Shown here: one piece after another, positions 47,232-64,000 of the stretch | Layout: each line of letters starts with the position of its first letter | How positions within the stretch are numbered: the stretch's first letter is position 1 | Origin: an uncultured virus (IMG/VR IMGVR_UViG_3300020159_003425) | Lineage: Duplodnaviria; Heunggongvirae; Uroviricota; Caudoviricetes | Length of the DNA stretch: 64,000 bases | Strand: one strand, 5' to 3' | Virus record (IMG/VR): IMGVR_UViG_3300020159_003425 | Notes under the pieces: model-generated | Seen by the model: the letters and a program-made list of their open reading frames with translations, nothing else | Told to the model about the DNA's origin: nothing | Databases searched by the model: none | Program-made: the position numbers and the translations under genes

Positions 47232-50200
47232 ATGGCTCTGAATTTTAACGTTGATCCATATTACGATGATTTTGATCCATCAAAGAATTTTCATCGTATT
47301 CTTTTTAAACCAGGTGTGGCAGTACAGGCAAGAGAACTAACACAGTCTCAAACAATACTGCAAAGCCAGATTTCCAAATTTGCAGACAACATTTTCTCAC
47401 AGAATACACCAGTTACTGGTGGTAAAGTTACTGTCAACCAAAATTGTTATTATTTAAAACTAAACGCACAGTACAATAGTATTGACATTGTTGCTGGTGA
47501 TTTCACAAATAAAATTATTCAAAACTCAACTGGTCAAGTTATTGCAAAAGTAATTAAGACAGCAGAAGCCACAGGTACAGACATTGCAGCAGGAGATCCA
47601 CCGACACTGATCGTTACATATCTTTCTGGCAGCCAGTTTAGTGATGGTATGGATATTTTTCCAGTAGATGGTTCCAACTTTGCTGCAACAATTATTGGCA
47701 CTCTTGGTGGTTCAACAGGTGTTGGGCTTTCTTCTGTTGCATCCATTTCTGATGGTGTTTTCTATATTGTTAATGGTTATTCACAATCCAGTACACAAAA
47801 TGAAGATGGTTCATATACCAAATATTCAATTGGTAACTTTGTATCTGTTCAACCACAAACAACAATACTAGACAAGTACAGTTCAACACCGTCCTATCGT
47901 GTCGGTTTGTCGATCCAAGAAACAATCGTAGACTATATCGATGATCCATCACTGTTGGATCCTGCCGTTGGTGCATCAAACTATCAGGCACCAGGTGCAG
48001 ACAGATACCAGATCAACCTTTCACTAACAACATTACCCTTAGAACTTGGTAATGATGATGCGTTTGTTGAATTGTTGAGAATTGAAAACGGCAATGTACA
48101 GAAGCAAGTTGACAATACAGTTTATTCTGTCATCGACGAATACTTTGCAAAGAGAACTTCAGAAACAAATGGCGACTATATCGTCAGCAATTTCAAGATA
48201 ACACCTTCAGCAAACACAATCGATGCGAACACATATGTTCTGGGAGTTGGTCCTGGTGTTGCATATGTTCAAGGTTTCAGATTAGAGAACCAGTCAACAC
48301 TACAAATCACTTCTGACCGCGCAAGAACTACCGACTCGGTAAACAACAATAGTAACTTTATTGATTATGGAAACTACATTTATATTGACAATCTAAAAGG
48401 GCAAGGCAGTAGTTTCTTTGATATCACAACAGGAAGCCCAGTTGACTTTCACATTGTTGGCACCACAGATGTTAATAGATCAAACACAACAACATACAAT
48501 TCAACTTTAGCTGGCAGTGGTTATATTCGTGCGTTGAGTTATGTTCAGGCTTCGAACGGTTCAAATACACAAACATATACTTACAAGGCACACATCTTTG
48601 ATCTTGCAAGTAAAACACTTTCGAGCAACGTTTCGGCTGCTAATAGCACTTTCACAACACTATATGTTGGTTCTGCTGGGTTACTATCTAACGTGGCGAA
48701 CGCATATGTTGGTTGTTCTCTAACAATCAATTCTGGTACAAATGCTGGTGATGCAAGAACAATCACGTATTACGATCCAAATAACAAAACAATTCAAACA
48801 GACGCACCATTCACAATTACACCTGATGGAACTTCTCAGTTCTCGATTCGTTTTGGTGTAAAGGACTTCGAAACAATTGTGCAACCTGTCACAGGAACAC
48901 CTTACACATTCACAGGCAGTGCGAGCGTTAGTTCTTTAGGCAAGGTAAACAATGTTGCTTCTGGTTACACACAGCTGTTTAATCCAGGAAATTCACAACT
49001 GATCTTCCCATTGGGTAACAAGTTTGTTTCTGCTGTAACAGATTCTTCTTACACTTCATTACAAGAATTTAGAGCACAATCTTTCGCAAGTTACTTAACT
49101 GGTTCCAGAAGATATCTGCAATTAGATCCATCATCAATAGGAGTATTTGATTTCATCAGAACAGGAACAACAGAGTCCGCTGATGCAGTCAGACAAAATT
49201 GGATAGTTGTTGTAACAGACAGATTAACCAACACTACAATAAACAACGGTGATGTTATTGATTTCACAACAGGCAGCAGAAGTATTGCTGTTGATTCGGA
49301 CAAGAACGGTGTGTATCTGACATGCCCAGACCTTGCACCATTCACTGCAACAATCTATGCCAAGTTATCTGTCACAGATGGTAACGACACAAACTATGTA
49401 CTGAAAACCAAAACTCTGGTTCAAGCAAACACATCAGTCGCAAGTTCTACTGGTCCAGATGGTATCGTCAACAATACATACATTGATTTAACTAACGCTC
49501 AAATTTGGATTCCAACTGCTGGCGTTTTGGATTATGGAAACAACCAGAAGTTGTATGTTTCAGATGTTAAGAGAATTGTTAAGATTATCGATACAAATGG
49601 TGAGACACCAAACGTATCTATGTTGACAACGGGAACAGATATAACATCTTATTACACATTCAATGATGGGCAGACAGACAATTACTATGGTCATTCATAT
49701 ATCACATTGAAACCAGGTCGTCAGAAGCCTGTTTCGTTGTGGATATTGTTTGACTATTTCAGTCACTCTGGTGGTGATGGTTACTTTAGCGCACAGTCTT
49801 ACACAAACGTTGGCTTCACCGACAGACCAAAATACTATGCGGGTAACGGTACACTGTATGACCTAAAAGATTGTTTAGACTTTAGACCTTCTGTGTTGAA
49901 TGGTCAAGGCAACTTTGTATTCAAATACAAGATCACACCAACAACAACAAACAATTCTGGTTTCTTTATTCCTGCTGATCTGAGTGCATTTACATCAGAC
50001 TATGCATATTATCTTGGAAGAAAAGATATACTTGTAATTGGTAAAGACAAAGGTCTAAGATTAATTCAAGGTGTTCCAGACATTAATCCTGTTTTCCCTG
50101 GTCAGCCAGAAGGATCTATGTTGTTAGCTAAAATCTCTTTAGATCCTTATACTGAGTACGTAACTGGACAAACAACAACTGGGCAAGTTGCAAACATCAA

Positions 50201-52319
50201 TGTTCAACCAGTGATTCACAAGCGCTGGGCATTCAAAGACATTACAGATTTACAGACACGTGTTAATAATCTGGAATACTATACATCACTGAATTTACTG
50301 GAACAAAAGGCCACAAACCTACAGATACCAGATGCTAACGGTTTAAATCGTTTTAAGAATGGTATTTTGGTTGACGACTTTTCAACCTTTAGTGTTGCTG
50401 ATACATTCAATCCAGACTTTAGTGCTGCAATTAATACAAGGTTGCAATACTTAACACCTGCAATATTGGTTAAGAATTATCCGTTGCAGAACCAACAGTT
50501 ACTGAGTGTTGGTGGTTTCAAGGGACTGTCAAATACAGCCACTACGGGATTAACATACAAACCAACAAACTCCGACAACTCTCCAATTTATACCCTAAAG
50601 TATACAGAGGAAATAATTGCGAGTCAACCGTTGGCAAGTCGAGCAATTTCAATCAATCCTTTTGCCGTGGCAGATTCGATTGGTACGTTGACTCTGACAC
50701 CACCTATGGACAACTGGATCGACAATACAAAACAACCAGATTTGTTGTTCATTGATCCCAACCTGAGAATGTATCAACCATCAAGTACATTAAACTTACT
50801 TGAAGGTAATCCAACATTGGCTGTTGCTGACTGGAAAACAATTCCAGGAACAGAAACGACAACCACACAAACATTAAACGAAACGAACACAGATGAATAT
50901 GGCAATTCATATTCTTCTTCTTACAATGCAAACGTTACAACTGTAGATAAACAAAATATCTATACCTACGGATATTGGTCACAAACATATTCCGTTGAAG
51001 GCAATTACATCTCCAACGTTTCTCTGTTACCATATATCAGAGAACAACAGATTAGTTTCAGAGCAACCGACATGTTGTTCAATACAACAGTTAACGCATT
51101 CTTTGATGAGAAACGTGTCTCACGTATGGTTAGAAAACCAAACATCATTGAACTGAGTTCTGTTTCTGGAACATTCAATGTTGGTGACACGATTGGATAT
51201 GTTGTCAGTTCGATATTCACCAAGACTGGTGTGATATCCGATATCTATACCTATGCAAACGGTAACGTTCGTTTATATGTCATAGGTGATATTGGTACCA
51301 CATCTTATGGTGCAACAGTGAGAAACGGATTCTTTAATGCATTCGGTGTATATCAAAACAGCACAGCAAGTGGCACATTTGTTTCACAAACTCACTACTC
51401 TGGTGCATTTGCAGCCAATACATCTTCAACAAATACTGTAACACTCGCAACAACTGCTTCATCAAGCAACACCGCATATGTTGGGCAAGAGTTCTGGATC
51501 GTCAATGGATCAGAAGCAAGTGTCATTTCAATACCTATCGGCCAGAAGGCAACAATTTCAAGTTACAATGGTGTAACTAAAGTGGCAACACTGAGCAGAA
51601 ATGTGATTGCAAAAACTGGTGAAACCTATTCTATTGGATCTCTGACAACAAACGAAGTTGGATCTGTGTCTGGTGTCTTTAACTGCCCTGGCGGTTACTT
51701 CCACGTGGGTGAAAGAACTTTCAGAATAGACAATAGAATTGTTACGGAAGGTGCAACAGACTTCTTCTACAACAAAGGAACTGAAACTACATCCTGTGAG
51801 GCAACATTCTTTGCACAAGGAATCTCAACATCTTCTCAGAAAATTAATTACTCTGCAAGTATTTCTGGTCAAGCAAACACAATCACGACCATAAAGACTG
51901 CTAATGATGTTGTAACAAACACTCAAAGAATTCAAAGTGGTGGTGGCGGCGGTTGCTGTGTTATTTCTACCGCAATGTCTGATATGGGTATCTGGTCATC
52001 AGATCAGAAGTTCGATCTGATCGAATGGTGTGAGAAGTATCTGCACAACAAGACAATCGGTGAATGCTTCCGTCGTGGTTATCAAGTCATTGGTTCCAAG
52101 ATTGCAGTACCATTGTTGAGAGATCAGGGTATTATTGGTAAGATTGCTAGACCTTATGGTAACTGGGCATTCACCAACGGCACAAACATGGTTCGTGGTA
52201 AGAAGTTCTCATGGTTGTCTGTACCAAACTCTATAGTCTGGATCGCAGGTTTCATGGCAGTTGGTGCAGTTGTGACAACAAAGTATGCAAACAAGTGCTG
52301 GAAAAAACTGTACAAATAA
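47232..52319 (+). CDS. large virion structural protein (VrlC/DUF4815-like), N-terminal part
   Basis: NFNVDPYYDDFD..KNFHRILFKPG.AVQARELTQ.Q, APGADRY, LEYYTSLNLLE, RFKNGILVDDF. Confidence 0.85.
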   Translation: MALNFNVDPYYDDFDPSKNFHRILFKPGVAVQARELTQSQTILQSQISKFADNIFSQNTPVTGGKVTVNQNCYYLKLNAQYNSIDIVAGDFTNKIIQNSTGQVIAKVIKTAEATGTDIAAGDPPTLIVTYLSGSQFSDGMDIFPVDGSNFAATIIGTLGGSTGVGLSSVASISDGVFYIVNGYSQSSTQNEDGSYTKYSIGNFVSVQPQTTILDKYSSTPSYRVGLSIQETIVDYIDDPSLLDPAVGASNYQAPGADRYQINLSLTTLPLELGNDDAFVELLRIENGNVQKQVDNTVYSVIDEYFAKRTSETNGDYIVSNFKITPSANTIDANTYVLGVGPGVAYVQGFRLENQSTLQITSDRARTTDSVNNNSNFIDYGNYIYIDNLKGQGSSFFDITTGSPVDFHIVGTTDVNRSNTTTYNSTLAGSGYIRALSYVQASNGSNTQTYTYKAHIFDLASKTLSSNVSAANSTFTTLYVGSAGLLSNVANAYVGCSLTINSGTNAGDARTITYYDPNNKTIQTDAPFTITPDGTSQFSIRFGVKDFETIVQPVTGTPYTFTGSASVSSLGKVNNVASGYTQLFNPGNSQLIFPLGNKFVSAVTDSSYTSLQEFRAQSFASYLTGSRRYLQLDPSSIGVFDFIRTGTTESADAVRQNWIVVVTDRLTNTTINNGDVIDFTTGSRSIAVDSDKNGVYLTCPDLAPFTATIYAKLSVTDGNDTNYVLKTKTLVQANTSVASSTGPDGIVNNTYIDLTNAQIWIPTAGVLDYGNNQKLYVSDVKRIVKIIDTNGETPNVSMLTTGTDITSYYTFNDGQTDNYYGHSYITLKPGRQKPVSLWILFDYFSHSGGDGYFSAQSYTNVGFTDRPKYYAGNGTLYDLKDCLDFRPSVLNGQGNFVFKYKITPTTTNNSGFFIPADLSAFTSDYAYYLGRKDILVIGKDKGLRLIQGVPDINPVFPGQPEGSMLLAKISLDPYTEYVTGQTTTGQVANINVQPVIHKRWAFKDITDLQTRVNNLEYYTSLNLLEQKATNLQIPDANGLNRFKNGILVDDFSTFSVADTFNPDFSAAINTRLQYLTPAILVKNYPLQNQQLLSVGGFKGLSNTATTGLTYKPTNSDNSPIYTLKYTEEIIASQPLASRAISINPFAVADSIGTLTLTPPMDNWIDNTKQPDLLFIDPNLRMYQPSSTLNLLEGNPTLAVADWKTIPGTETTTTQTLNETNTDEYGNSYSSSYNANVTTVDKQNIYTYGYWSQTYSVEGNYISNVSLLPYIREQQISFRATDMLFNTTVNAFFDEKRVSRMVRKPNIIELSSVSGTFNVGDTIGYVVSSIFTKTGVISDIYTYANGNVRLYVIGDIGTTSYGATVRNGFFNAFGVYQNSTASGTFVSQTHYSGAFAANTSSTNTVTLATTASSSNTAYVGQEFWIVNGSEASVISIPIGQKATISSYNGVTKVATLSRNVIAKTGETYSIGSLTTNEVGSVSGVFNCPGGYFHVGERTFRIDNRIVTEGATDFFYNKGTETTSCEATFFAQGISTSSQKINYSASISGQANTITTIKTANDVVTNTQRIQSGGGGGCCVISTAMSDMGIWSSDQKFDLIEWCEKYLHNKTIGECFRRGYQVIGSKIAVPLLRDQGIIGKIARPYGNWAFTNGTNMVRGKKFSWLSVPNSIVWIAGFMAVGAVVTTKYANKCWKKLYK

Positions 52320-52322
52320 ATC

Positions 52323-52772
52323 ATGGGACTAAGTGTAGCTGAATATTTTGCACAAAAGGAGGCCTGTGCCTCCTGTGTGGATCATGGTACAGAAGAACAT
52401 TGTGTAACTACACTGTTAAGCAGAAAAGAAAACTGTTTTGTTTATAGTATCATTCACAATCAAATAGGTGAGTATAAACAACAAGAGATCGAACTTCTCC
52501 GAAAAATGAGAGAAGATTGTTCAGAAGAAGAAAATGTAATTTATTATGTTAGAGGTGAAAATATAATTGAAAAGATGGACCTGATGAATAAACCTTTTTA
52601 CGAACAGGTTTCTATTTTCAGTTATATAAATTACAAATATATTAAAACTGTTGTCGAAGCATTGGTTCAAAAAAGAACAGATGATGCAAAACGTCTAATA
52701 AATACTATGTTAGAAGTTCTTGAAAAAGAGAATAACATACCGAAGGAATTAAATGAGTTCAAGTACTATTGA
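52323..52772 (+). CDS. hypothetical protein with CFI-box-CTERM-like pattern
   Basis: NCFV...EIELLRKMRED...IYY.RG..II..M...YI..VV pattern. Confidence 0.55.
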   Translation: MGLSVAEYFAQKEACASCVDHGTEEHCVTTLLSRKENCFVYSIIHNQIGEYKQQEIELLRKMREDCSEEENVIYYVRGENIIEKMDLMNKPFYEQVSIFSYINYKYIKTVVEALVQKRTDDAKRLINTMLEVLEKENNIPKELNEFKYY

Positions 52773-54408
52773 TCCAGTAGCGCAAACATTTATCATAGAT
52801 GGTCAAAATTTTCCATCTGGAGCTTTCTTAAGTTCTGTTAATTTGTTTTTTAGAACAAAGCCATCGACGAGCGTACCTGTTCGCCTTTGCATATTATCAA
52901 CTATCAATGGTTATCCAACTGGGCAACCTCTAGAGTATTCTATTGTTAGTTTGCCATCCACTTCTGTTAATGTATCCGAAACACCGCATTACCTGAATTC
53001 AAGTACGTATACGAATTTTGCTTTTTCGGCACCGGTTTATATTAATCCAGACCAATTGTATGCAATAGTTGTTCAGTCTTCTTCAGATGATTATACACTG
53101 TGGTGTTCACAACAAGGTGATTCTGCATTGTTATCAACATCAAAAGCTTTACCAACAGACGTTAATCCATCAACACCAACAAAGATTGTTACCACTCCTT
53201 ATGTTGGTGATTTGTTCGAATCTCAGAATGGATTAACTTGGACTGCCGACTTATTAAAAGACTTGATGTTTACGATCAATAGATGTAAGTTTGATACAAA
53301 TACATCGCCTTCAATGTCATTTGTTGTACCGGCAGGATTACCAGAGAGAAGAACAATTGAATCGGATACATCTCTTGCTACATCCAATTCTATATACGAT
53401 CTATTCAACCTATCCACAACAGACTTAACACCACCAGGAACCACTCTTTCATATCAGTATACAACAACACTAGAGTCTGGTTCAGCTGATGGTCCATATA
53501 ACGTGGTACCAGGAAAATATGGTACACCAAAATCGGAAGATGTGGCTTTGAATGACAACAAGGGATCGAGAGTATTAAACTATACCGCAAACGATTCATT
53601 TAAATTGCAAGCCACTTTATCTACAGACAACGATGCTGTCAGCCCAATTATTTCGGAAGACGGATTGAGCCTATGGACAATTCGTTATAGAATTAATAAC
53701 ATGGGTATTTCAAACGATGATATTTTCCTTATTTCTGGTGGCCGAGGATACTTAGCCAATGCGAACGGAACAATTTCTTATCCTCAAATTAGCGTTTCTG
53801 CACCAGATTTGGGTGGTGGTGAACAAGCTTACGTTTCTGCCAACATCCAATCTGGAAATATTGTCAGTGTATATGTTACATCAGAAGGTTCTGGATATCT
53901 GACAACACCATCAATCACCATTTCAAATACATCAAACGTGTCGGCGAACGTGATTATTGCTGGTGAAACATCACCCGCCGGCGGAAACGGCAGAGCCAAA
54001 TATATAACACAGGTTGTCACCTTGGCAGAAGGTAGTGATTCTGGTGACCTAAGAGTCTACACAACAGCTTATAGACCACCAAATTCAGACATTCATGTTT
54101 ATTATAAGATTGTGGCCAGAGATGACACACAAAAAATTGAACAAGGTGATTGGAAATTGATGACAATTACAACTGGTGCCGGAAGATACTCGACAAGTTT
54201 TTCCGATATCGTTGAATATGAATTTTCACCAGGCACATTAAACGTTGCAGATGAATTTGTGAGTTATACCAGTAAAGCTAACGGGCTTTCCTATACATCA
54301 TTCTACCAGTTTGTAATTAAAGTTGTTATGTCGTCTTCCGATTCGACGTTTGCACCATTCTTGGATGACATAAGAGCAATTGCTCTGCCGCCAGGAACAG
54401 GACTATAA
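52753..54408 (+). CDS. VrlC-like structural protein, C-terminal part
   Basis: DPVAQTF...FLSSVNLFF..K, G.LFESQNG.TW, DLMF, AKYIT..V.L, DIRAIAL. Confidence 0.82.
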   Translation: MSSSTIDPVAQTFIIDGQNFPSGAFLSSVNLFFRTKPSTSVPVRLCILSTINGYPTGQPLEYSIVSLPSTSVNVSETPHYLNSSTYTNFAFSAPVYINPDQLYAIVVQSSSDDYTLWCSQQGDSALLSTSKALPTDVNPSTPTKIVTTPYVGDLFESQNGLTWTADLLKDLMFTINRCKFDTNTSPSMSFVVPAGLPERRTIESDTSLATSNSIYDLFNLSTTDLTPPGTTLSYQYTTTLESGSADGPYNVVPGKYGTPKSEDVALNDNKGSRVLNYTANDSFKLQATLSTDNDAVSPIISEDGLSLWTIRYRINNMGISNDDIFLISGGRGYLANANGTISYPQISVSAPDLGGGEQAYVSANIQSGNIVSVYVTSEGSGYLTTPSITISNTSNVSANVIIAGETSPAGGNGRAKYITQVVTLAEGSDSGDLRVYTTAYRPPNSDIHVYYKIVARDDTQKIEQGDWKLMTITTGAGRYSTSFSDIVEYEFSPGTLNVADEFVSYTSKANGLSYTSFYQFVIKVVMSSSDSTFAPFLDDIRAIALPPGTGL

Positions 54409-54409
54409 G

Positions 54410-54637
54410 ATGTTAGTCAAAGTAGAAGGTACAAATCTGTATCGCGATACAGAAACTATGGCTTTAATTAATAGAGACACAAAAGAAAAAAACGATTACG
54501 TAATGAAGTCTCGTTTAATTAAGAACCAAAAAGATCAAATAAATACCGTCAAAGAAGAAATAGAAGTCATCAAAGGTGAAATGTCTGAGATTAAACAATT
54601 GATGATAAAACTACTCGAAAAAGGTTCAAATGGCTAA
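54410..54637 (+). CDS. small conserved coiled-coil protein (KVEG.NLYRD...ALIN)
   Basis: ATG at 54410; typical neighbour of VrlC-like genes. Confidence 0.8.
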   Translation: MLVKVEGTNLYRDTETMALINRDTKEKNDYVMKSRLIKNQKDQINTVKEEIEVIKGEMSEIKQLMIKLLEKGSNG

Positions 54638-57600
54638 TACAGTTACATCGTTAAGTTACGCAAACACATTTGGTGAGTGGGTTGTTGCGACAAATAGTCT
54701 TATTAGAGAAAATAATGATCTTGCGGCAAACGACTATGTTAAAAGCACAGGTACACTTTACCTGAATGAAACTACACAAAACTCTCTTCAAGCAAACGGT
54801 ACCGTAATTATACAGAAACAGTTACTTGTACAAGGTACAGGTTCATCTGCTACTGTACAGAACAACATGAACGTTGGTAGTCAACTATATTTGACAAATG
54901 GTTCTTTAAGTTTAGTTGCTTCTGGTCAAGCAAACGTTGCTGGGCAGATTAACGGGCAAGCTTCTGGTATTGGTCTATTCATTGCAAATAATGCACATAT
55001 TGGTGGCAACACAGTTTCTGCGGTAAGAGTTACGACAGGTATCTTGCAAGCAAACTCTTCTGTTAATACATCGAACGCTTCAATTGTTAACACAGTATTC
55101 ACCAAAGATTTACAGGCAAACTCTACAGTTAACACAGCAACAGCTTCTGTAACTGGTACTACATTTACTAACGTATTACAAGCCAACACATCAACAAATA
55201 CAAGCAACGCTTCGATTGTTGGAACAACATATACTGGTATTTTACAGGCAAATACTTCTGCAACTGTTGGTACATTACAAGCTAATACATCAACAAATAC
55301 TGCCACAGCATCCGTAACAGGTACCACATTTACGAATGTATTGCAAGCAAATACATCAACAAATACTGCCACAGCATCTGTAACAGGTACCACATTTACT
55401 GGTGTACTGCAAGCCAACACCTCTACAAATACTGCCACAGCTTCTGTAACTGGCACCACATTTACAAATGTGTTACAATCCAATACGTCTGTTAATACAG
55501 CAACAGCGTCCATAACAGGCACCACTTTCACTAATGTATTACAAGCCAATACATCAACAAATACAGCAACAGCATCCGTAACAGGCACCACATTTACTGG
55601 TACACTACAAGCTAATACTTCTGCAACTGTTGGTACACTACAAGCTAATACTTCTACAAATACAGCAACAGCATCTGTGACGGGCACCACATTTACAAAT
55701 GTGTTACAATCCAATACGTCTGTTAATACAGCAACAGCTTCTGTAACTGGCACCACTTTCACTAATGTATTACAAGCCAATACCTCTGTAAATTCACCAT
55801 TGGTTGTCGCAAACAATATCACTTCAAACAATACAATTACAGCAAATAATATTTCGTTGTCTAATGTATTGAATGGTAACACTGCCACAGGATACTTCAA
55901 CAGTATTCAAGTTCAAGGTGGTGGTTTAACCATTAACGGTAACTTTGTAATAACTGGCACAACAGTTTACACTGCGAACACTTTCATACTTTCTTCAGAC
56001 GTTTCGTCTGGTATTTCGAGTTACTATAATGTAGATAGGGGTTCTTCTGGTGTAGATGCTGCATTCCGTTGGAATGAACTATCTTTGTACTGGGACATGT
56101 TGAATGTCACATCGAACGTATACTATCGTGTTCTAACGAATGAGTATTTTAATGATACGTTAACATCTACCAGCACCACATTAGTTGCAACCGCAAACGC
56201 AGTCAATGCATTAAATACACTTTATAATACATCAAATACATTCTTGCAAGCTGGTGTTGTTTCGAATGGTTTATATGCAAACGCAGCATTCTTAAGAGCT
56301 AACGCAGCATATGGTTCACAAAATACCACCGGCACATACGCAAACTCTGCATATGCACAAGCCAACACTGCAACCAATAATGCAGCAGGAGCGTCCTTGT
56401 ATGCAAACGGAGCTTTCATTCAAGCAAACGCAGCATTCTTAAGAGCCAATACACCAGATGCTATAGCTAACTCGGCAGCACTCTACGCTAATGGAGCTTT
56501 CACTCAAGCAAATTCTGGATATAATCAAGCGAACACTGCTACAAACAATGCTGCAACAGCAGATTCTAAAGCAGTAACAGCTGGTTCTTATGCAAACTCA
56601 GCATATACACAAGCAAACACCGCGACCAATAATGCGGCTGGCGCATCACTATATGCAAATGGTGCATTCATTCAAGCTAATGCAGCATTCTTAAGAGCCA
56701 ATACACCAGATGCTATAGCTAACTCAGCAGCACTTTATGCAAATGGTGCTTTCGTACAGGCTAACGCTGGTTATACACAAGCCAACACTGCAACTAATAA
56801 TGCAGCTGGTGCCTCATTATATGCCAATGGTGCTTTTGTACAAGCCAATGCTGCTTATGCTCAAGCAAATACAGCAACCAATAATGCAGCAGGAGCATCT
56901 TTGTATGCTAATGGCGCTTTTAGACAAGCCAATGCTGCTTATGCTCAAGCTAACACCACTGCATCTTCAGCTACAAACGCTAGTAATCTTTCAAGTGGCA
57001 CCGTACCTCTTGCTAGACTGAGTGGAATAACAACGACACAACTTAGTGCGTCTGCTGCTATTACAAATTCACAGTTAGCAAGCAGCACAATATCTGGTGT
57101 CTCCTTGGGTGGAACTTTACCATCACACACAGCTGGATCTTATTTGGTTGGTAGTGCTTATAATGGCAGTACAGGTCAAACATGGTCTGTTAACGCGACA
57201 ACTACAAATACTTTTAGTGCAATTGCAGCAAGAGATGGTGCAGGTGACATATATGCAACAGTCTTCAGAGGACTTGCAACTAGTGCCAACTACGCCGACT
57301 TGGCAGAAAAATATCTAGCTGATAAAGAGTATGAAGTTGGAACAGTTGTTTCTGTTGGTGGTGAAGCTGAAGTTACTGCTAGTTCATATGGTGAGAGAGC
57401 AATCGGAGTAGTATCCGCTCATCCTGCTTATATGATGAATAGTGAATTGGAAGGTGGAACTTACATTGCACTTAAAGGTAGGGTTCCAGTGAAAGTTACT
57501 GGCACTATACGCAAAGGGCAACGTTTGGTTGCATACAACAATGGCACAGCAGTTGCAGCAGTACCACATGCAAGTGACGTTTTTGGTATTGCGTTAGAAT

Positions 57601-57647
57601 CCAGTGATGATACTGGAACAAAACTAATTGAAGCAGTGATTTTATAA
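54630..57647 (+). CDS. tail fibre protein with repeats and C-terminal intramolecular-chaperone-like domain
   Basis: NTFGEWVVATN start; LQANTSTNTATASVTGTTFTNV and YANGAF.QAN repeats; ANYADLAEKY...GVVS..PAYMMN...GRVPVKV. Confidence 0.8.
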   Translation: MANTVTSLSYANTFGEWVVATNSLIRENNDLAANDYVKSTGTLYLNETTQNSLQANGTVIIQKQLLVQGTGSSATVQNNMNVGSQLYLTNGSLSLVASGQANVAGQINGQASGIGLFIANNAHIGGNTVSAVRVTTGILQANSSVNTSNASIVNTVFTKDLQANSTVNTATASVTGTTFTNVLQANTSTNTSNASIVGTTYTGILQANTSATVGTLQANTSTNTATASVTGTTFTNVLQANTSTNTATASVTGTTFTGVLQANTSTNTATASVTGTTFTNVLQSNTSVNTATASITGTTFTNVLQANTSTNTATASVTGTTFTGTLQANTSATVGTLQANTSTNTATASVTGTTFTNVLQSNTSVNTATASVTGTTFTNVLQANTSVNSPLVVANNITSNNTITANNISLSNVLNGNTATGYFNSIQVQGGGLTINGNFVITGTTVYTANTFILSSDVSSGISSYYNVDRGSSGVDAAFRWNELSLYWDMLNVTSNVYYRVLTNEYFNDTLTSTSTTLVATANAVNALNTLYNTSNTFLQAGVVSNGLYANAAFLRANAAYGSQNTTGTYANSAYAQANTATNNAAGASLYANGAFIQANAAFLRANTPDAIANSAALYANGAFTQANSGYNQANTATNNAATADSKAVTAGSYANSAYTQANTATNNAAGASLYANGAFIQANAAFLRANTPDAIANSAALYANGAFVQANAGYTQANTATNNAAGASLYANGAFVQANAAYAQANTATNNAAGASLYANGAFRQANAAYAQANTTASSATNASNLSSGTVPLARLSGITTTQLSASAAITNSQLASSTISGVSLGGTLPSHTAGSYLVGSAYNGSTGQTWSVNATTTNTFSAIAARDGAGDIYATVFRGLATSANYADLAEKYLADKEYEVGTVVSVGGEAEVTASSYGERAIGVVSAHPAYMMNSELEGGTYIALKGRVPVKVTGTIRKGQRLVAYNNGTAVAAVPHASDVFGIALESSDDTGTKLIEAVIL
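55040..55790 (+). repeat. 22-aa (66-nt) coding tandem repeats in the tail fibre
   Basis: Roughly a dozen LQ(A/S)N(T/S)S units, two shortened to 11 aa. Confidence 0.9.
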
Positions 57648-57725: not shown

Positions 57726-58211
57726 ATGATAACATTAAATGAATTTGAAAACTTCTTGTACACCGATTTGGTTTATGAACAGAAAATAGTTTCGGTAATT
57801 GACGATCAACATAGGCAGATATTGATTGAAAATATCCGGCAGTTACATGATTATACCAACTGCACCATAAAATTGGAACAAATGGAAAAATACAATGAAG
57901 GTATTTTCCAGAAGTGTCAAGAGTTGAGGAAGAAATACTCACATCCAGGTCCAGTAACCTGCCACGCATTTCTTGCGTTCAAAGGTTCCAAAAGTTTTGG
58001 TGTACACACTGACCCAGATAATGTTATAATAGAATGTCTTTTTGGTTCAAAAACATTATATGTTGCAACCAAAAATGATAGAAGACATGTGCTCAAACAA
58101 GGCGAATATATATTCATACCAGCCAATACAGAACATGAAATCATTAATGAAGAAAAGTCATTGATATTGAGTTTTGGATTTGAAAATTTTATACTGAAAA
58201 ACTTAAATTAA
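57726..58211 (+). CDS. JmjC-like/cupin Fe(II)-2OG oxygenase
   Basis: SFGVHTD (HxD), GSK, L..GEYIFIPANTEH (distal His). Confidence 0.8.
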   Translation: MITLNEFENFLYTDLVYEQKIVSVIDDQHRQILIENIRQLHDYTNCTIKLEQMEKYNEGIFQKCQELRKKYSHPGPVTCHAFLAFKGSKSFGVHTDPDNVIIECLFGSKTLYVATKNDRRHVLKQGEYIFIPANTEHEIINEEKSLILSFGFENFILKNLN

Positions 58212-58214
58212 ATT

Positions 58215-59264
58215 ATGGAATCGATGTTCTACCTCAAGACGACAGAAACTTGTAACCTAGACTGTCTTCACTGTTTCACAAGTGGTTCCAAAGGTGCAAA
58301 AATTTATTGGAATCATGTCAAGGTTGCTGACTGGTTACGAAAACTTTCGGCAAAAACACCACACATAACACACGCACATTTCGAATTTCATGGTGGTGAA
58401 CCTTTCTTAGCAGACATTGCCTCCCTACAATACGTATACGACAATTGCCAAAACCTTTGGCAGAGTCAAAGTTGGGGTGTCACAACCAATCTGACGTTCA
58501 AACTAGATCAAGAAAAGATAGATTTTATAATGGGTCCATTGGATGGTAGAGTTGGTACCAGTTGGGATCCAGACATACGATTTGCAAATCCAAAGCAATA
58601 CGACTTGTGGAGAAAGAACGTACAAACACTGGTTGATTTGGGTGTTGTAATTAAACTGTTCATCAGTGTAACCAAGGGTACGATTGCAATAGAACCAATA
58701 GACTTACTAGAGTGGGTGAAATCTCTTGGTGTAAAAGAAATGGCATTAGAACGTTTAACAATGAACGGCAGTGCAAAGCAGAACTTACATATCTTTCCCA
58801 CAAATATCGAACAAGACAAGTGGTTTTTGAAAATGCACCAACAAAGTGAAGAACATGGTGCAAGAGACTGGTTCGTAAATGAATTTATGAAAACCGTATA
58901 CGACAAATTCGAAACAGGATTTACAGGCGGCGGAACATTCTGTAGAGATTGTGAAGAGAAATTATTCACTGTGAATGCTGACGGCACCGTATCGGGATGT
59001 CCAAATTCTGCACCAGAATTTCAATTTGGCACCATAGATGATGATATAGATGCGTTATTATCCAATCCTCAGAGATTGGAGAACATTGCTTGTGAAAGAG
59101 CAAGAGATCCAAGGTGTTACACATGTGAGGTGTTTCAGTATTGCAATAGTGATTGTCATCAGTTGGAATGGCAAGATGATATTTGTGGTGCACCAAAAAG
59201 TCTAATGATGGACTTGGCAAAAATAAATAAAAAACATCCAGTTTTCAACCTTTTGCAGGTCTGA
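58215..59264 (+). CDS. radical SAM/SPASM enzyme
   Basis: CNLDCLHC, FHGGEP, TTNL; C-terminal CRDC...GCP...CYTC...CNSDC...C. Confidence 0.93.
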   Translation: MESMFYLKTTETCNLDCLHCFTSGSKGAKIYWNHVKVADWLRKLSAKTPHITHAHFEFHGGEPFLADIASLQYVYDNCQNLWQSQSWGVTTNLTFKLDQEKIDFIMGPLDGRVGTSWDPDIRFANPKQYDLWRKNVQTLVDLGVVIKLFISVTKGTIAIEPIDLLEWVKSLGVKEMALERLTMNGSAKQNLHIFPTNIEQDKWFLKMHQQSEEHGARDWFVNEFMKTVYDKFETGFTGGGTFCRDCEEKLFTVNADGTVSGCPNSAPEFQFGTIDDDIDALLSNPQRLENIACERARDPRCYTCEVFQYCNSDCHQLEWQDDICGAPKSLMMDLAKINKKHPVFNLLQV

Positions 59265-59265
59265 T

Positions 59266-60291
59266 GTGTTAACAAGAACAAAACCATACTCCACCGCATA
59301 CGATCAGTACGGAGATCCATATAAACTTGTGGAATTTCGTATGATGGTGTTGAACAACTGTTCTATGGACTGCAAAGGTTGTTTCTACAAAAGGACAGAC
59401 AACAACTTCAATGATTTCAAGAGTTCAAGAAATTTGGCAGAAGACATGCAGTCAAATGGATATAGACTGGAAACTTGTTATCTACTACCAACAGACATAT
59501 TCGATAACAAAGACAACTATTCATTATTCGATAATGAAGATTTTGCAAAAACGGTATCTCAATTTGCGTACCTGGGCATAGCATCAACATTGGAAGATGG
59601 TTTTGATACCAAATTCTTCGACATAGTTTATGGGTTAAATGATCATATCAAGATTGAATTGCAGGTGAATCTTCTCATCAATAGATTGTTTGATATAAAC
59701 TATCAAATGATACTCAAACACAATGTAAACCGAATCAAAAATCTATACAAGGATAGAGTAGTAATTAATCTGGCAATCAATACCGGATTCTCACTCGACA
59801 CTAAGGAAAAGGATAAGATTAAATCGATGTTGAAATACCTTAGTGAAGATGGTATTGTCGAATTAAACTTCACTTTCCTATACAACAAAGATATTTCTGA
59901 GGAAAAGAAACAAAAGATGATGAAGGATAGCATCAGAATCATTCAAGATTTTGGTGATTTCTACCAGGAAGATGAATCCTTTGTCACTAAATACAATATG
60001 CGTACATTTTTACGCAAACCATCTTTCGTTTTCGTTGGAGAACCAAACACAGTATACGTCAATCCAATAGTTCCTTTTGATGAATATGTGTATATCAAAA
60101 AAGATAGATACATTGTACAGACTCCAACATATGATGGTTTTTTAAATTCTTATGGTAAAATAACTGAGATAAATACACCAGTAGTGGACGCCTGTGAGTC
60201 ATGTGAAAACTTAACTCATTGTATGGGCAAGTTTTACTTTGCTATATCGAATGATTTTGACTTGGGGTGTTTCTTAAATCTGAAGGAATGA
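59266..60291 (+). CDS. divergent radical SAM-like protein
   Basis: CSMDCKGC (CxxxCxxC); PTDIF instead of GGEP; C-terminal CESC..L..C...C; GTG start. Confidence 0.75.
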   Translation: MLTRTKPYSTAYDQYGDPYKLVEFRMMVLNNCSMDCKGCFYKRTDNNFNDFKSSRNLAEDMQSNGYRLETCYLLPTDIFDNKDNYSLFDNEDFAKTVSQFAYLGIASTLEDGFDTKFFDIVYGLNDHIKIELQVNLLINRLFDINYQMILKHNVNRIKNLYKDRVVINLAINTGFSLDTKEKDKIKSMLKYLSEDGIVELNFTFLYNKDISEEKKQKMMKDSIRIIQDFGDFYQEDESFVTKYNMRTFLRKPSFVFVGEPNTVYVNPIVPFDEYVYIKKDRYIVQTPTYDGFLNSYGKITEINTPVVDACESCENLTHCMGKFYFAISNDFDLGCFLNLKE

Positions 60292-60301
60292 TGGAGAAAA
60301 A

Positions 60302-60841
60302 ATGGCAAATTCTGGTTCATTAATTACAAAACAAAGTATAGTAGATGATTACTATGCGTATATTCGGAATCCTGCTTATAACGCAGTAGTCTTTTGGTCC
60401 GGAGATAACCCAGGACCAACCAGAATTAACACTGGCGCACTTGGACCCAGAGATTTTAGTGCTAATTTGGCAACTGGCAACATAACAGATTCTGTTGTAA
60501 CTGCTGCAACCATCATCAATCAGGTTAGGGCTTTTGCTGTATATACCACTGCTGCAAGAAGAGCGAGAAGTGGTTTCATAGTGGATGATTTTTCACCAGA
60601 CAATCCACCATATACAATTGATGATAGAACCGATGTTTGCCGCTTGACGGATTCTTATCTAATTAGTTACACTTATGGTGGAAGTGTGAGTAATCCTGTG
60701 GGCGCAACAAACATCAATCAATTCTACACTAATATTAGAGCAACTGCTCAGAATGCACAGACAACGGCCGATGTAGTAGATTTACGTGTGTGTCACAGTT
60801 CATGTCACAGTTCATGTCACTCATCAAGAGGAAGAAGATAA
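60302..60841 (+). CDS. candidate modification substrate with C-terminal (CHSS)3-RGRR
   Basis: Strong RBS ggag; ends VCHSSCHSSCHSSRGRR; embedded among radical SAM genes. Confidence 0.75.
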   Translation: MANSGSLITKQSIVDDYYAYIRNPAYNAVVFWSGDNPGPTRINTGALGPRDFSANLATGNITDSVVTAATIINQVRAFAVYTTAARRARSGFIVDDFSPDNPPYTIDDRTDVCRLTDSYLISYTYGGSVSNPVGATNINQFYTNIRATAQNAQTTADVVDLRVCHSSCHSSCHSSRGRR

Positions 60842-61900
60842 ATGTTTCATATTGCTAACAGAGTGTATTTGGAATACGACTACAAATTTCATCAACAGTA
60901 CCCATATATTGTTGCATCGAGTAGATGGAAAGATCATCCAATAACTATATCGAAAAGTGAACTGATTGCTCAGGTACCGAGTTTTCAAGAACTATTATCT
61001 GAGAGATATAATAATAACATTGAAACCTTTTGGTCATCGTTATTATCAGAAACTAGAAAACTTATTGTTTTCGTTGATCCAGAAACCATGGCAAAGTTAC
61101 AGTTCCAGTATTGGAAAAGTATTTTCAAAGATGACATAAAGGCGGAAGACTTACACAAGTTGCACGCCAGTTGGATAGAAAGTAACAGATTGTCTAGTTA
61201 CTACTCCTTAATTGGTTCATGGGACAGAGGCACAAATTCATGGTCTAAATCCAATGCATTCACCGAGTTGGCAATACCGACTTTGGCGGATTCTACCAAA
61301 TTATTCAATGAAACTGTTGCATCGAATACCATCAAATCGATGAACAAATCATCCATCAGTTTTGAATATTTGATGGCCGAGTTCTTTCACAACAATGCAT
61401 CCAATTATAAACAAGAATTACTAAAAAGAATTGAGTTTCTAACTTGGGATAACTGGTTGGACGAACTGGAACACTTGAAATATGAAATCATTTCCGGCAA
61501 TATCGATGCCGGTAAATTGGATACATCTCTAAGAATGAGTATTGGCAACATCGAAAGTGAACTGGCCAAAAGCGACTTGTTAAAATGGACTGTCGATCCA
61601 GCTTTTACCAATGATGCCGAGTATATTAAAGCAAATTATGATCCACAAATTTTCGTTAACTGTTATATCAAATTAGCAGAAGTATGGCAACACGACTACG
61701 ATGACATGTCACAACTCAGCAGACTAATTAATGAGAAACAATATGAAGAATTGTTAAACAGAGATGTTAATAGAAACTATGGTTGCTCTTATACACGCAC
61801 ACGATTCTTTGCAAAATCCAACCATGTATTTGCCACATGGTGTTACGACTTGAAGAGAAAAGGACAAACTTCTCAGTTGGCACCATTCGTTCTACGTTAA
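60842..61900 (+). CDS. hypothetical protein in the radical SAM cluster
   Basis: 352 aa, starts at the base after the substrate's stop; no motif recognised. Confidence 0.8.
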   Translation: MFHIANRVYLEYDYKFHQQYPYIVASSRWKDHPITISKSELIAQVPSFQELLSERYNNNIETFWSSLLSETRKLIVFVDPETMAKLQFQYWKSIFKDDIKAEDLHKLHASWIESNRLSSYYSLIGSWDRGTNSWSKSNAFTELAIPTLADSTKLFNETVASNTIKSMNKSSISFEYLMAEFFHNNASNYKQELLKRIEFLTWDNWLDELEHLKYEIISGNIDAGKLDTSLRMSIGNIESELAKSDLLKWTVDPAFTNDAEYIKANYDPQIFVNCYIKLAEVWQHDYDDMSQLSRLINEKQYEELLNRDVNRNYGCSYTRTRFFAKSNHVFATWCYDLKRKGQTSQLAPFVLR

Positions 61901-61937: not shown

Positions 61938-63059
61938 ATGTATTCTGTATTTTCAAATGAATTCAATGTCGTTTACCTTAGAGTGGTTCAGGGGTGCAAT
62001 TTAAATTGCACACATTGTTTCACATTAGGCAATAAAGATCCTGTCATGTTTACGGAGTTATCCGTTTTGGAAAAGTTCTTAACGTCCATACGAAACAATG
62101 TGAACCCACAGAAAGTCACATTTTACATTCATGGTGGTGAAACATTTTTAGCTCCACTAAAATATCTATCGAGTGTGAATGATTTAATTCGGGAAAAGTT
62201 TCCTGATATAAAGATGGATATAATTCCACAAACAAACTTAATCTACAAAGTGGACCAAGAGTTTGTGGAATTTATCAAAAAAGAATACAGAGGCACGATA
62301 GGTGTTAGTTGGGATGCCGATATACGATTCGGATCGGTAGCCATCAACAAAAAATCTGAACAAGAAGAAGTGTTCTTTAAGAACCTCCGATATCTGATCG
62401 ACAATGGCATCAAAGTACATATTGCTATCACTGCACAAAAGAATTTATTGAACTATGATCCAATAGAGATCGTAGAAAAATTTGATGGTGTTGATAGTAT
62501 AGACTTTGAATTGTTAACTACATTCGATGATCAAACAAGAAGTCTACGACCAAACAATTTGAAATGGGCAAACTGGTTGGATAAATTGGTAACATATTAT
62601 GAAGACAATAATACCACTTGGTGTTTGCCACAAATTGATCTGTTTACCAAAACACTAATGACTGGAAAAATGTTTGATTGTAAATGCAATTGTTGCGACA
62701 AACGAACATTCACTTTAAATCCAAATGGTACCGTTGGTTTATGTCCAGACATGACTTATGTTGAACCATTCAGTACAGTGGACGAAATGTCAACGGATTG
62801 GCCAGCATTTGAATCCAAGTCTCTGGATCTGATAATAAAGAAGATCACTGCACAACAAGAACATGAGATGTGTTTCAAGTGCGAACATTATGACATATGC
62901 GGTGGTAATTGCGACTCTTCTTTGTTCGATGACACCGAAGAGTGTCCATTAAGTAAGAAGGTAATTGGTCGTATAAGAGGCAATATAAATAAATTTATTC
63001 GACTTTATGAACAAAAAGCCAAATTTAATTTGACAGAACTGAGAGAAAATTATGAATAA
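61938..63059 (+). CDS. radical SAM/SPASM enzyme
   Basis: CNLNCTHC, IHGGET, QTNL; CKCNCC...LCP...CFKC...CGGNC...CP. Confidence 0.93.
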   Translation: MYSVFSNEFNVVYLRVVQGCNLNCTHCFTLGNKDPVMFTELSVLEKFLTSIRNNVNPQKVTFYIHGGETFLAPLKYLSSVNDLIREKFPDIKMDIIPQTNLIYKVDQEFVEFIKKEYRGTIGVSWDADIRFGSVAINKKSEQEEVFFKNLRYLIDNGIKVHIAITAQKNLLNYDPIEIVEKFDGVDSIDFELLTTFDDQTRSLRPNNLKWANWLDKLVTYYEDNNTTWCLPQIDLFTKTLMTGKMFDCKCNCCDKRTFTLNPNGTVGLCPDMTYVEPFSTVDEMSTDWPAFESKSLDLIIKKITAQQEHEMCFKCEHYDICGGNCDSSLFDDTEECPLSKKVIGRIRGNINKFIRLYEQKAKFNLTELRENYE

Positions 63060-63798
63060 GATCCGAGAAACTGTGGCACCTTTGCCAATTGAAACAATCA
63101 AAGAATATTTTCACGACAAAGAAATTTCTTTCTTGGTTGATTATGAAAACTCTAAGATTGCAGATAAAATTTTCTTAACATATGTTTCAAATCTGGACAT
63201 ACCGTTAGATATCAAATTAAGAAAAGACTTTCCCAAAGAAAAATTGTTCTCGTTGATTGATGCATATATGGATATGAAAACAATATGTGATGTTAAAACT
63301 TTAAGTATGATGGTAGTACACATTCTACTCAAAGCAATCGGCGTAAACACGAAAGAGTCATTGTCAAATACTTTTATGACAGAAGAATTGGTTGATGAAT
63401 TCATTGAAACAAGAAAAGAAAAAGTTTCAAGGTGGGCTCACTTTTTGGATTCTTCAATGTTGTTTCTGATTTATTCTTACAAAGATTTGAATGAAAAAAT
63501 AAAAGTCGAAGAATCATTTCCTAAAATAGAAGATGCAAACTATGTCGGTTTGAACATCGTAAACCTATTCAGTGTTCCTGGTTTTATGAATTGTTATTTC
63601 AGTGCGGGTCCAACACCAAGTATGAGTTTCTTCACCGAACAATTCACCAAGTATATGTTCAAAGGTAAAAACCTATTTGATTATTTCAACAACGAAGAGA
63701 ATATGTTTGTACCACTACTGGTTGGGCTTGTCGAAAAGAAGTTACATATGGATCCAAGAGAACAATTCAAGGACGATTTGAGTCTGGAAGTAAAATAA
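63052..63798 (+). CDS. hypothetical protein in the radical SAM cluster
   Basis: ETVAPLPIE.IK.YF...FL.YVSNLDIP; TATAAATA at 62984-62991 upstream. Confidence 0.8.
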   Translation: MNKIRETVAPLPIETIKEYFHDKEISFLVDYENSKIADKIFLTYVSNLDIPLDIKLRKDFPKEKLFSLIDAYMDMKTICDVKTLSMMVVHILLKAIGVNTKESLSNTFMTEELVDEFIETRKEKVSRWAHFLDSSMLFLIYSYKDLNEKIKVEESFPKIEDANYVGLNIVNLFSVPGFMNCYFSAGPTPSMSFFTEQFTKYMFKGKNLFDYFNNEENMFVPLLVGLVEKKLHMDPREQFKDDLSLEVK

Positions 63799-63799
63799 A

Positions 63800-64000
63800 A
63801 TGGACGCTTATTTGGCATCAGGTAGTCTTAAAGACTCCTTCAATTTTTACTTCAACTTAAACTTTGAATTCTTAAATGGATGCCAGTTTAGTTGTAAGGG
63901 TTGCCACGTAAATAAAAATGGTGCTGAAGCTTTCGATGATGATAGTTATACACAATTGAAGAAAATTATGGAGAGTTTTAGTGAAGGCAACTCCTATAAA
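63800..64000 (+). CDS. fourth radical SAM-like protein (truncated by window end)
   Basis: Hand translation MDAYLASGSLKDSFNFYFNLNFEFLNGCQFSCKGCHVNKNG...; CxxxCxxC resembles 59266-60291. Confidence 0.78.
   Translation, partial: MDAYLASGSLKDSFNFYFNLNFEFLNGCQFSCKGCHVNKNGAEAFDDDSYTQLKKIMESFSEGNSYK

Follow-up and report, generated by a model that had tools for sequence, protein, structure and literature searches.

The locus and its candidate substrate

Does the repeat of Cys and His residues that closes a small protein of an uncultured phage serve as the substrate of the radical SAM (rSAM) enzymes encoded around it? We analyzed the window, the whole 64,000-nt stretch of DNA, which belongs to a T4-like phage (tail tube, baseplate wedge, hub, gp32-like and gp59-like genes). 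A 179-aa open reading frame on the + strand (60302–60841), with GGAG at 60293–60296 ahead of its ATG, ends in VCHSSCHSSCHSSRGRR followed by the stop codon, and this end reads (CHSS)3-RGRR, a tail of 16 residues. The gene lies in a cassette that runs, in order, JmjC/cupin oxygenase, enzyme A, enzyme G, tail protein, MFH protein, enzyme H, 248-aa accessory protein and the start of enzyme F, behind a large virion protein and a fibre-like gene.

54630–57647, + strand: tail-fibre-like protein with a Peptidase_G2-like domain at its C-terminus, encoded immediately before the cassette (phrog_19602 tail fibre, E = 2e-9; PF11962, E = 5e-5)
57726–58211, + strand: JmjC/cupin oxygenase (161 aa) with metal triad H94-x-D96...H137 (PF07883 and PF08007 above cut-off)
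58215–59264, + strand: core radical SAM/SPASM enzyme A (phrog_1802, E = 3e-64; SPASM TIGR04085 above cut-off; CX15GX4C and CX2CX5CX3C motifs)
59266–60291, + strand: subtype-specific radical-SAM-like enzyme G (CxxxCxxC at 32–39, four C-terminal Cys; no library family)
60302–60841, + strand: tail-bearing scaffold protein of the 'DLRVCH' subtype, 179 aa (weak match to the uncharacterised phrog_35144)
60302–60790, + strand: folded body, residues 1–163, as helix, helix, long beta-hairpin, helix (AlphaFold2 model)
60791–60826, + strand: (Cys-His-Ser-Ser)x3 core (sequence, relatives, codon use)
60827–60838, + strand: RGRR end (RxRR in the family), linked to rSAM enzymes B and D by co-variation
60842–61900, + strand: conserved accessory protein of 'MFH' type (phrog_36207), beginning at the base after the tail gene's stop codon
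61938–63059, + strand: subtype-specific radical SAM/SPASM enzyme H, a paralogue of A (SPASM match, motifs)
63052–63798, + strand: near-universal accessory protein, 248 aa (phrog_20767; AlphaFold2 pLDDT 93.6), kept in RxRR-less cassettes too
63800–64000, + strand: first part of F, a radical SAM enzyme specific to the subtype, truncated where the window stops (recognized from relatives' loci)

Enzymes A and H each carry CxxxCxxC and the full SPASM Cys motifs, scoring 32.1 and 28 bits against TIGR04085 (cut-off 27). The core enzymes B, C and D are expected beyond the window end, judging from the loci of the same subtype (L002, L166 and L167), which continue with these three and hold seven rSAM enzymes altogether. 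The 248-aa accessory protein matched no known fold (best Z 4.9), the MFH protein returned only sub-significant calmodulin matches and no atlas match, and the two families show no relation to one another. No RRE domain, peptidase or transporter is annotated in the cassette, where two core proteins are without annotation. The T4 late-promoter motif has 4 matches against 3.7 expected, none of them right ahead of the cassette.

The window's fibre gene and its JmjC and enzyme A genes (57726–59264) are nearest to those of L012, L064 and L006 (enzyme A 82–83% identical), whose tail protein is of another subtype; the cassette therefore looks recombined just after enzyme A. In close relatives, a three-gene insert (unknown, 2OG-like and SAM methyltransferase) that is absent from the window lies between the MFH and H genes (L163, 2517–4691; L071, 13779–15958; L166, 11607–13840). 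Upstream of the cassette in L159 (1093–8057) and L162 (4535–8072) are four to eight paralogous, unannotated genes of 270–310 aa, most of which start MKIIES. Within the window, a giant T4-like virion protein (phrog_358/DUF4815) is split over two genes (47232–54408): 47232–52319 covers profile positions 5–1416 and 52753–54408 picks up at position 1420. The two are separated by an unrelated gene of 149 aa. The first gene ends in a Gly-linker and a 120-aa domain that opens with two Cys and has no Pfam or PHROG match; this end may be a self-processing C-terminal domain.

The tail is selected at the protein level and conserved across the family

The core DNA (60791–60826) consists of two copies of tgtcacagttca followed by tgtcactcatca, and the initial annotation had read the different Ser codons of the third unit as a sign that the repeat is held at the protein level. 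The codons of 82 non-redundant three-unit tails bear this out: unit position 4 is Ser in all 82, written with AGY in 34 and TCN in 48, and each tail Cys and His is written with both its codons. Because the position-4 Ser is kept across the AGY and TCN codon families, we conclude that selection acts on the protein. The pattern CHxxCHxxCH is observed once in the window's six frames, compared to an expectation of 0.00026.

The body had been described as rich in Thr, Ala, Asn and Ser over its first ~160 residues, like the neighbouring virion proteins, and as having only one other Cys. Both observations hold. These four residues make up 38.7% of residues 1–163, compared to 35–55% in the neighbouring virion proteins and 22–28% in two cassette proteins and gp32, and the single Cys is C114 (codon 60641–60643). 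The protein matched no Pfam or NCBIfam family (NCBIfam at E 0.1).

A word-indexed search returned 46 relatives whose alignment has nine invariant columns, six of them the tail Cys and His residues, and a profile search returned 759 clusters (50% identity) at E ≤ 0.001. The end (CHxx)3-RxRx is found in 171 of the first 193 family proteins, and most of the rest have GSI or GSL ends, or 2, 4, 5 or 6 units. Conservation among homologues, on which the initial annotation had made its proposal depend, was checked with a body-only query (P0038, residues 1–176), chosen to take the tail's pull out of the ranking. The tail was present in all of the best 120 of 259 matches (117 exact, 3 one residue off), with no tail-less body among those 120.

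Across 1009 C-H-x-y units from 335 distinct proteins, y is Ser in 880, Asn in 96, Ala in 27 and Asp in 6, and never Gly or Thr; x is free, is Gly 222 times and is most frequently Gly in the third unit. The y pattern repeats in two sets picked independently of the tail (177 and 358 units). Cys-His-Ser-Ser is correct for the window's protein, but the unit of the family is C-H-x-[S/N/A/D] and not strictly CHSS. Tyr stands in place of His in 3 proteins, and in 2 proteins the third (last) Cys is lost while aromatic-x-A/N is retained. In L041, L044, L053, P0149 and P0164 the tail is expanded to between five and more than ten units, in some cases interrupted by NVPV spacers, and comes without additional core enzymes.

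A tblastn search of cultured phages with the tail protein is insensitive, and relatives were instead reached through enzyme A, which led to 15 cultured-phage records. The gene after enzyme A ends in a Cys-His tail in all four that were translated (Atu_ph07, RSL2, pPa_SNUABM_DT01 and Phosso). In a pattern-limited scan of cellular genomes, the tail profile had no match and enzyme A was found on one contig, in a Rickettsiales MAG, with phage-like gene content. This contig (L130, NZIN01000021.1) carries T4-like structural genes and a full cassette and is probably a mis-binned phage contig. The Cys-His tail is genuine, under strong selection and widely distributed.

The tail gene and the rSAM enzymes are linked in both directions

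When loci were found by the tail, a same-strand open reading frame of more than 200 aa with CxxxCxxC was present in all 58 viral loci, and a family rSAM enzyme was present in all 65 testable metagenome loci (80 returned, leaving out 3 without a called tail ORF and 12 that were too short). No enzyme-less tail locus was found in the 58 viral and 65 testable metagenome loci. When loci were found by enzyme A alone, 63 of 68 had the tail gene, in most of them as the gene that follows. Two of the five misses are on contigs that stop within 250 bp of enzyme A (L099 and L103), and the other three (L121, L125 and L129) appear, by comparison with L122, L123 and L126, to be members of a subfamily with the tail gene ~7.5 kb upstream, past the contig DNA covered.

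The core kit is nearly constant across 66 non-redundant loci (A in 63, B in 64, C in 60, D in 60, JmjC in 59 and the 248-aa-type accessory protein in 65), and is joined by MFH-type proteins in 57, some 2OG oxygenase in 56 and a B12-dependent rSAM enzyme in 26, though counts across loci are not independent because the sequences are related. In two loci of a divergent clade, L047 and L051, the tail is present but neither A nor C has a clear orthologue. This clade (L043, L046–L051) has two tandem short tail proteins (126–140 aa) and divergent rSAM enzymes; in L047 and L051, enzymes B and D and the small protein lie on the opposite strand.

The enzyme set follows the tail sequence

The family contains proteins that have lost the terminal arginines, and we compared the cassettes of both kinds. 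Among 94 distinct RxRR proteins with long flanks, A is present in 89, C in 86, B in 93, D in 88, JmjC in 84 and a 136-aa small protein in 80. Among the 8 distinct RxRR-less proteins with long flanks, A and C are present in all 8, and none of the 8 has B, D, JmjC or the 136-aa protein. The link of JmjC to RxRR is weaker than that of B and D, because 10 of the 94 RxRR loci lack JmjC and the RxRR-less loci retain other 2OG-type oxygenases.

The RxRR-less proteins were counted as two events. The first lineage is a T4-like clade with the tail end CHGS[I/L], whose cassette contains a fibre gene, A, the tail protein, the accessory protein, two MFH-like proteins, C, a B12 rSAM enzyme, a hydroxylase-like protein and fibre genes; this cassette lacks B, D, JmjC and the 136-aa protein. 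The second is a single contig with phiKZ-like flanks (L161), where a Gly-rich extension replaces RxRR and the cassette has only A, the accessory protein, MFH, C and two 2OG oxygenases. Five whole RxRR-less contigs (44–99 kb, 27–41% complete) contained no B or D orthologue, and four contigs searched for JmjC contained none, with positive controls matched in both searches. The enzyme A tree places the two lineages apart (p-AU = 5.9e-7), but on the enzyme C tree a monophyletic grouping of them is not rejected (p-AU = 0.055); both are 23-row quick trees with rows picked from an 80-row quick tree.

A second co-variation involves the body. In the window's own subtype, DLR[VI]CH, the extra rSAM enzymes F, G and H are all present in 9 of 11 loci and two of them in the other 2, compared to none in 119 of 121 loci of other subtypes and F only in the remaining 2. 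The subtype has its own MFH type and is found in both T4-like and phiKZ-like (L166) contexts.

The RxRR-less lineages keep A and C without B and D, so the enzymes present change with the tail. Such dependence of the enzyme complement on the sequence of the putative substrate is, across these few independent events, the strongest sign that the tail is a substrate. The initial proposal of a candidate rSAM substrate gains support from the two-way linkage and from the loss of B and D alongside RxRR, with the modification itself predicted from sequence.

The body is modelled as a folded domain and a relative is found in virions

The AlphaFold2 model of the tail protein has a mean pLDDT of 87.7 and a pTM of 0.80, with blocks over residues 11–160 at pLDDT 82–97 and the last residues unplaced. 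The only matches to its body fold are phage proteins that are themselves uncharacterised, including Atu_ph07 A0A2L0UZF9. Comparisons with the PDB returned nothing by Foldseek at E ≤ 0.001, by VIA-align (best Z 3.7) or by profile search, an atlas search gave no usable match, and a homotrimer prediction scored 0.01. In longer relatives, virion-type Gly_rich_2 domains are fused in front of the body or inserted into it, and in P0219 and P0155 the tail is located inside the chain. Such fusions and insertions would be the behaviour of structural modules, unlike that of short leaders. In a further relative (P0214; L162, 10001–11242), the Cys-His units lead directly into the opening Cys of a tandem array of three Hint domains and there is no RxRR; self-cleavage there would release the C-terminus of the tail, and the cassette downstream in L162 is lost at the contig end.

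The virion evidence comes from one phage, Atu_ph07, as PEG-purified particles. Its gp170 is a 296-aa relative of the window's tail protein (homology P 99.2%, fold E = 7e-5), and its computed mass of 31,894 Da agrees with Table S5 of PMC6102473. According to that table, gp170 was present in purified virions with 8 peptides and 35% coverage, while gp165–169 and gp171–172 are absent from it. It spans gel bands 1–9 with its maximum in band 1, where the other proteins that peak are mostly of 75–140 kDa (PMC6102473). In the table, gp170 is the sole band-1 peak among the 34 proteins of 25–40 kDa with at least 3 peptides; two more proteins of this size, with 1–2 peptides each, likewise peak in band 1. 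This migration, as tabulated, shows a stable or linked gp170 oligomer rather than any particular chemistry: the loading buffer as given for the gel names no reductant (PMC6102473), and the band-1 signal could equally come from disulfide bonds or from an oligomer that withstands heating. The accessible text of the AP-J-162 and S13 papers gives no virion MS of their own, and the virion table of phage RP31 is uninformative on the tail because the RP31 region has no Cys-His tail gene.

The suggestion that the N-terminal part is a folded structural domain rather than a cleavable leader is thus supported by the AlphaFold2 model, by the virion-type domain insertions and by gp170 in virions.

Proposed mechanism

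We propose that the window encodes a virion protein whose C-terminal tail is modified in the manner of a RiPP by a dedicated rSAM battery, and we give this reading, whose chemistry is inferred, a probability of about 0.72. Because B and D are lost where RxRR is lost, the enzymes very probably modify the tail. The protein would be a folded component of the particle, probably tied to tail fibres or other appendages, and its C-terminal 16 residues would be the substrate of the phage-encoded enzymes. The SPASM enzymes A and C would act on the C-H-x-S/N/A/D units, while B and D, perhaps with JmjC, are predicted to act on or need the arginines. The variable oxygenases and methyltransferases may tailor the tail further, though some of these enzymes may well act elsewhere. 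The body could double as an enzyme-docking domain and a structural part, and the modified tail could stiffen the protein, lock it covalently into the particle or form a tip that binds the host surface.

No cassette enzyme reaches the cut-off of a characterised maturase, and the chemistry is therefore unreadable from family membership. The likeliest candidates are a triceptide-like bond between the His ring and a C-beta within H-x-S, a thioether at Cys, or both; a thioether from Cys to y or to another residue is equally open, and with A and C both present both bonds may occur. We put the odds that at least one of the modifications is such a crosslink at about even. More tentatively, and with the balance somewhat against it, the cassette could be a phage RiPP-like maturation line in which two rSAM/SPASM enzymes staple the Cys-His-x-Ser units and two further rSAM enzymes with an oxygenase rework the terminal arginines. 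On this reading the staples would be His-Ser cyclophanes, thioethers or both, and might link one subunit to another; the appendage would then be covalently locked and run at the top of an SDS gel. Phages would in that case use rSAM crosslinking in the construction of their particles; at least four enzyme families would be new, and arginine may be a further target of radical chemistry.

If the preferred reading is true, radical-mediated protein maturation joins virion assembly in both T4-like and phiKZ-like phages and supplies several new families of peptide-crosslinking enzymes. The consulted portions of earlier work list phage rSAM clusters as Fe-S-related auxiliary or unknown genes, with no substrate (PMC5332604, PMC8066314, PMC11898562). 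The tail protein gives these clusters a candidate substrate and a testable, predicted division of labour. No description of the tail or cassette as a system was found in the open literature searched, as distinct from subscription papers (e.g. the RSL2/RSF1 genome paper) and bioRxiv supplements.

Alternative explanations

The best surviving alternative, which we nevertheless consider unlikely, is a true RiPP: the body would serve as an extended leader, or as a carrier, and the 16-mer, once modified, would be released by cleavage as a free peptide that acts against the host, against rival phages or against a defence system, for example HXS. An invariant core behind a variable body and the many tailoring enzymes are what such a system would show, HxsA is reported to be both modified and cleaved (PMC13128918), and the Hint domains of P0214 sit directly behind its tail. 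Yet no peptidase or transporter was identified in the conserved part of the cassette (with two core proteins unannotated), the body folds well, accepts virion-type insertions and has a relative in virions, and tails are also found internally (P0219 and P0155).

Slightly less probable is a tail that stays unmodified and binds metal in the virion (Zn, Fe or Fe-S), or one that carries Fe-S for the enzymes; metal binding would be a minor rival or a second role. His-coordinated iron occurs in phage fibre tips, and three Cys and three His at fixed spacing, in tails that grow to 4–6 units and more, would suit a metal. However, a metal site leaves unexplained the disappearance of B and D together with the arginines, the extra rSAM enzymes that follow one body subtype, the exclusion of Gly and Thr at y, and the changes of His to Tyr and losses of the last Cys. 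It also sits poorly with the finding of no tail-less body among the 120 listed matches and no enzyme-less locus among the 58 viral and 65 testable metagenome loci.

The weakest alternative, that the enzymes act mainly elsewhere (on the tail fibre, DNA bases or a small molecule) with the tail protein as a co-inherited helper, draws on reported phage rSAM enzymes that modify DNA bases (PMC8989533), on the position of the cassette behind fibre genes in 39 of 66 loci and on a different rSAM cluster without a Cys-His tail in the same slot of phage RP31, but we regard it as improbable since A and H have full SPASM motifs and best (sub-threshold) matches to peptide and protein maturases, and since the enzyme set co-varies with both tail sequence and body subtype. 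The RP31 cluster (L244, 3173–10743; ORF70–76) has four CxxxCxxC proteins behind fibre genes, and its 125-aa ORF70 ends in a His-x-His motif that could be another type of substrate.

Comparison with known systems

The preferred reading, a virion protein with an rSAM-modified tail, invites comparison with three peptide-modifying systems and one class of oxygenases. The first is HXS, an antiphage system of HxsA, HxsB, HxsC and HxsD (TIGR03976–03979; Li et al. 2026, PMC13128918), which, as described there, has a protein-sized substrate with His-Xaa-Ser repeats and needs rSAM enzymes. A +8 Da change in HxsA maps to an SHRSS motif (PMC13128918), and the register of the phage tail fits this motif as well. 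H-x-S is present in 880 of 1009 tail units, though in a four-residue register with Cys. As described, HXS is bacterial and periplasmic, with a signal peptide, a peptidoglycan-binding domain, two rSAM enzymes and no Cys in the repeat (PMC13128918), whereas the phage system has a four-residue C-terminal unit with Cys, four to seven rSAM enzymes and oxygenases, and a relative associated with virions. The cassette's enzymes score far from those of HXS (29–41 bits against a cut-off of 370 for HxsB, TIGR03978, and 15–32 against 268 for HxsC, TIGR03977). The HxsA model matched neither the tail protein (E 0.1) nor 150 family members among the 25 of 31 families listed.

Triceptides are made by rSAM/SPASM enzymes that include the His-specific cyclophane synthases HaaB, YhhB and HtkB, and the bond reported for them joins His-C2 to the C-beta of the third residue in aromatic-X2-X3 (HAA, HNR and HTK; PMC11499958). 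By analogy, the tail's H-x-S/N/A/D without Gly would fit the same His-C2 to C-beta register. The third residue bears a C-beta in all 1009 units (S/N/A/D), and the Tyr found for His in 3 proteins keeps the aromatic. Triceptides are, in that account, short cleaved bacterial peptides, mostly with one rSAM enzyme (PMC11499958). The cyclophane-synthase models YhhB, AmcB, FxsB, GrrM/OscB, DynA and DarE were all far under cut-off in the cassette (YhhB, 51 bits against 445; DynA, 63 against 450).

CXXX-repeat peptides and ranthipeptides (TIGR04114–04119; PapB, NF047865; SCIFF, TIGR03974) share a Cys at each fourth residue beside rSAM/SPASM enzymes, and a thioether is plausible; the phage tail differs by its invariant His, its folded body and its viral setting. 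TIGR04114–04118 are families of CXXX-repeat rSAM targets, and in the 25 of 31 families listed for 150 members of the tail-protein family, no CXXX target model had a match. Scores for the enzymes were also far under cut-off (CXXX maturase, 19.5 bits against 150; PapB, 45 against 340; SCIFF maturase, 20 against 425).

For the oxygenase, the nearest comparison is with the JmjC ribosomal oxygenases ycfD, NO66 and MINA53 and with JMJD5, for which hydroxylation of protein His or Arg is described. The cassette cupin passes PF08007 and has the metal triad, yet it differs from these enzymes in being a 161-aa stand-alone phage domain with a candidate substrate only. Enzymes A and H carry the general features of rSAM/SPASM protein maturases. 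The phage system resembles HXS and RiPP maturation, yet by NCBIfam cut-offs it is outside the HXS, triceptide and CXXX families.
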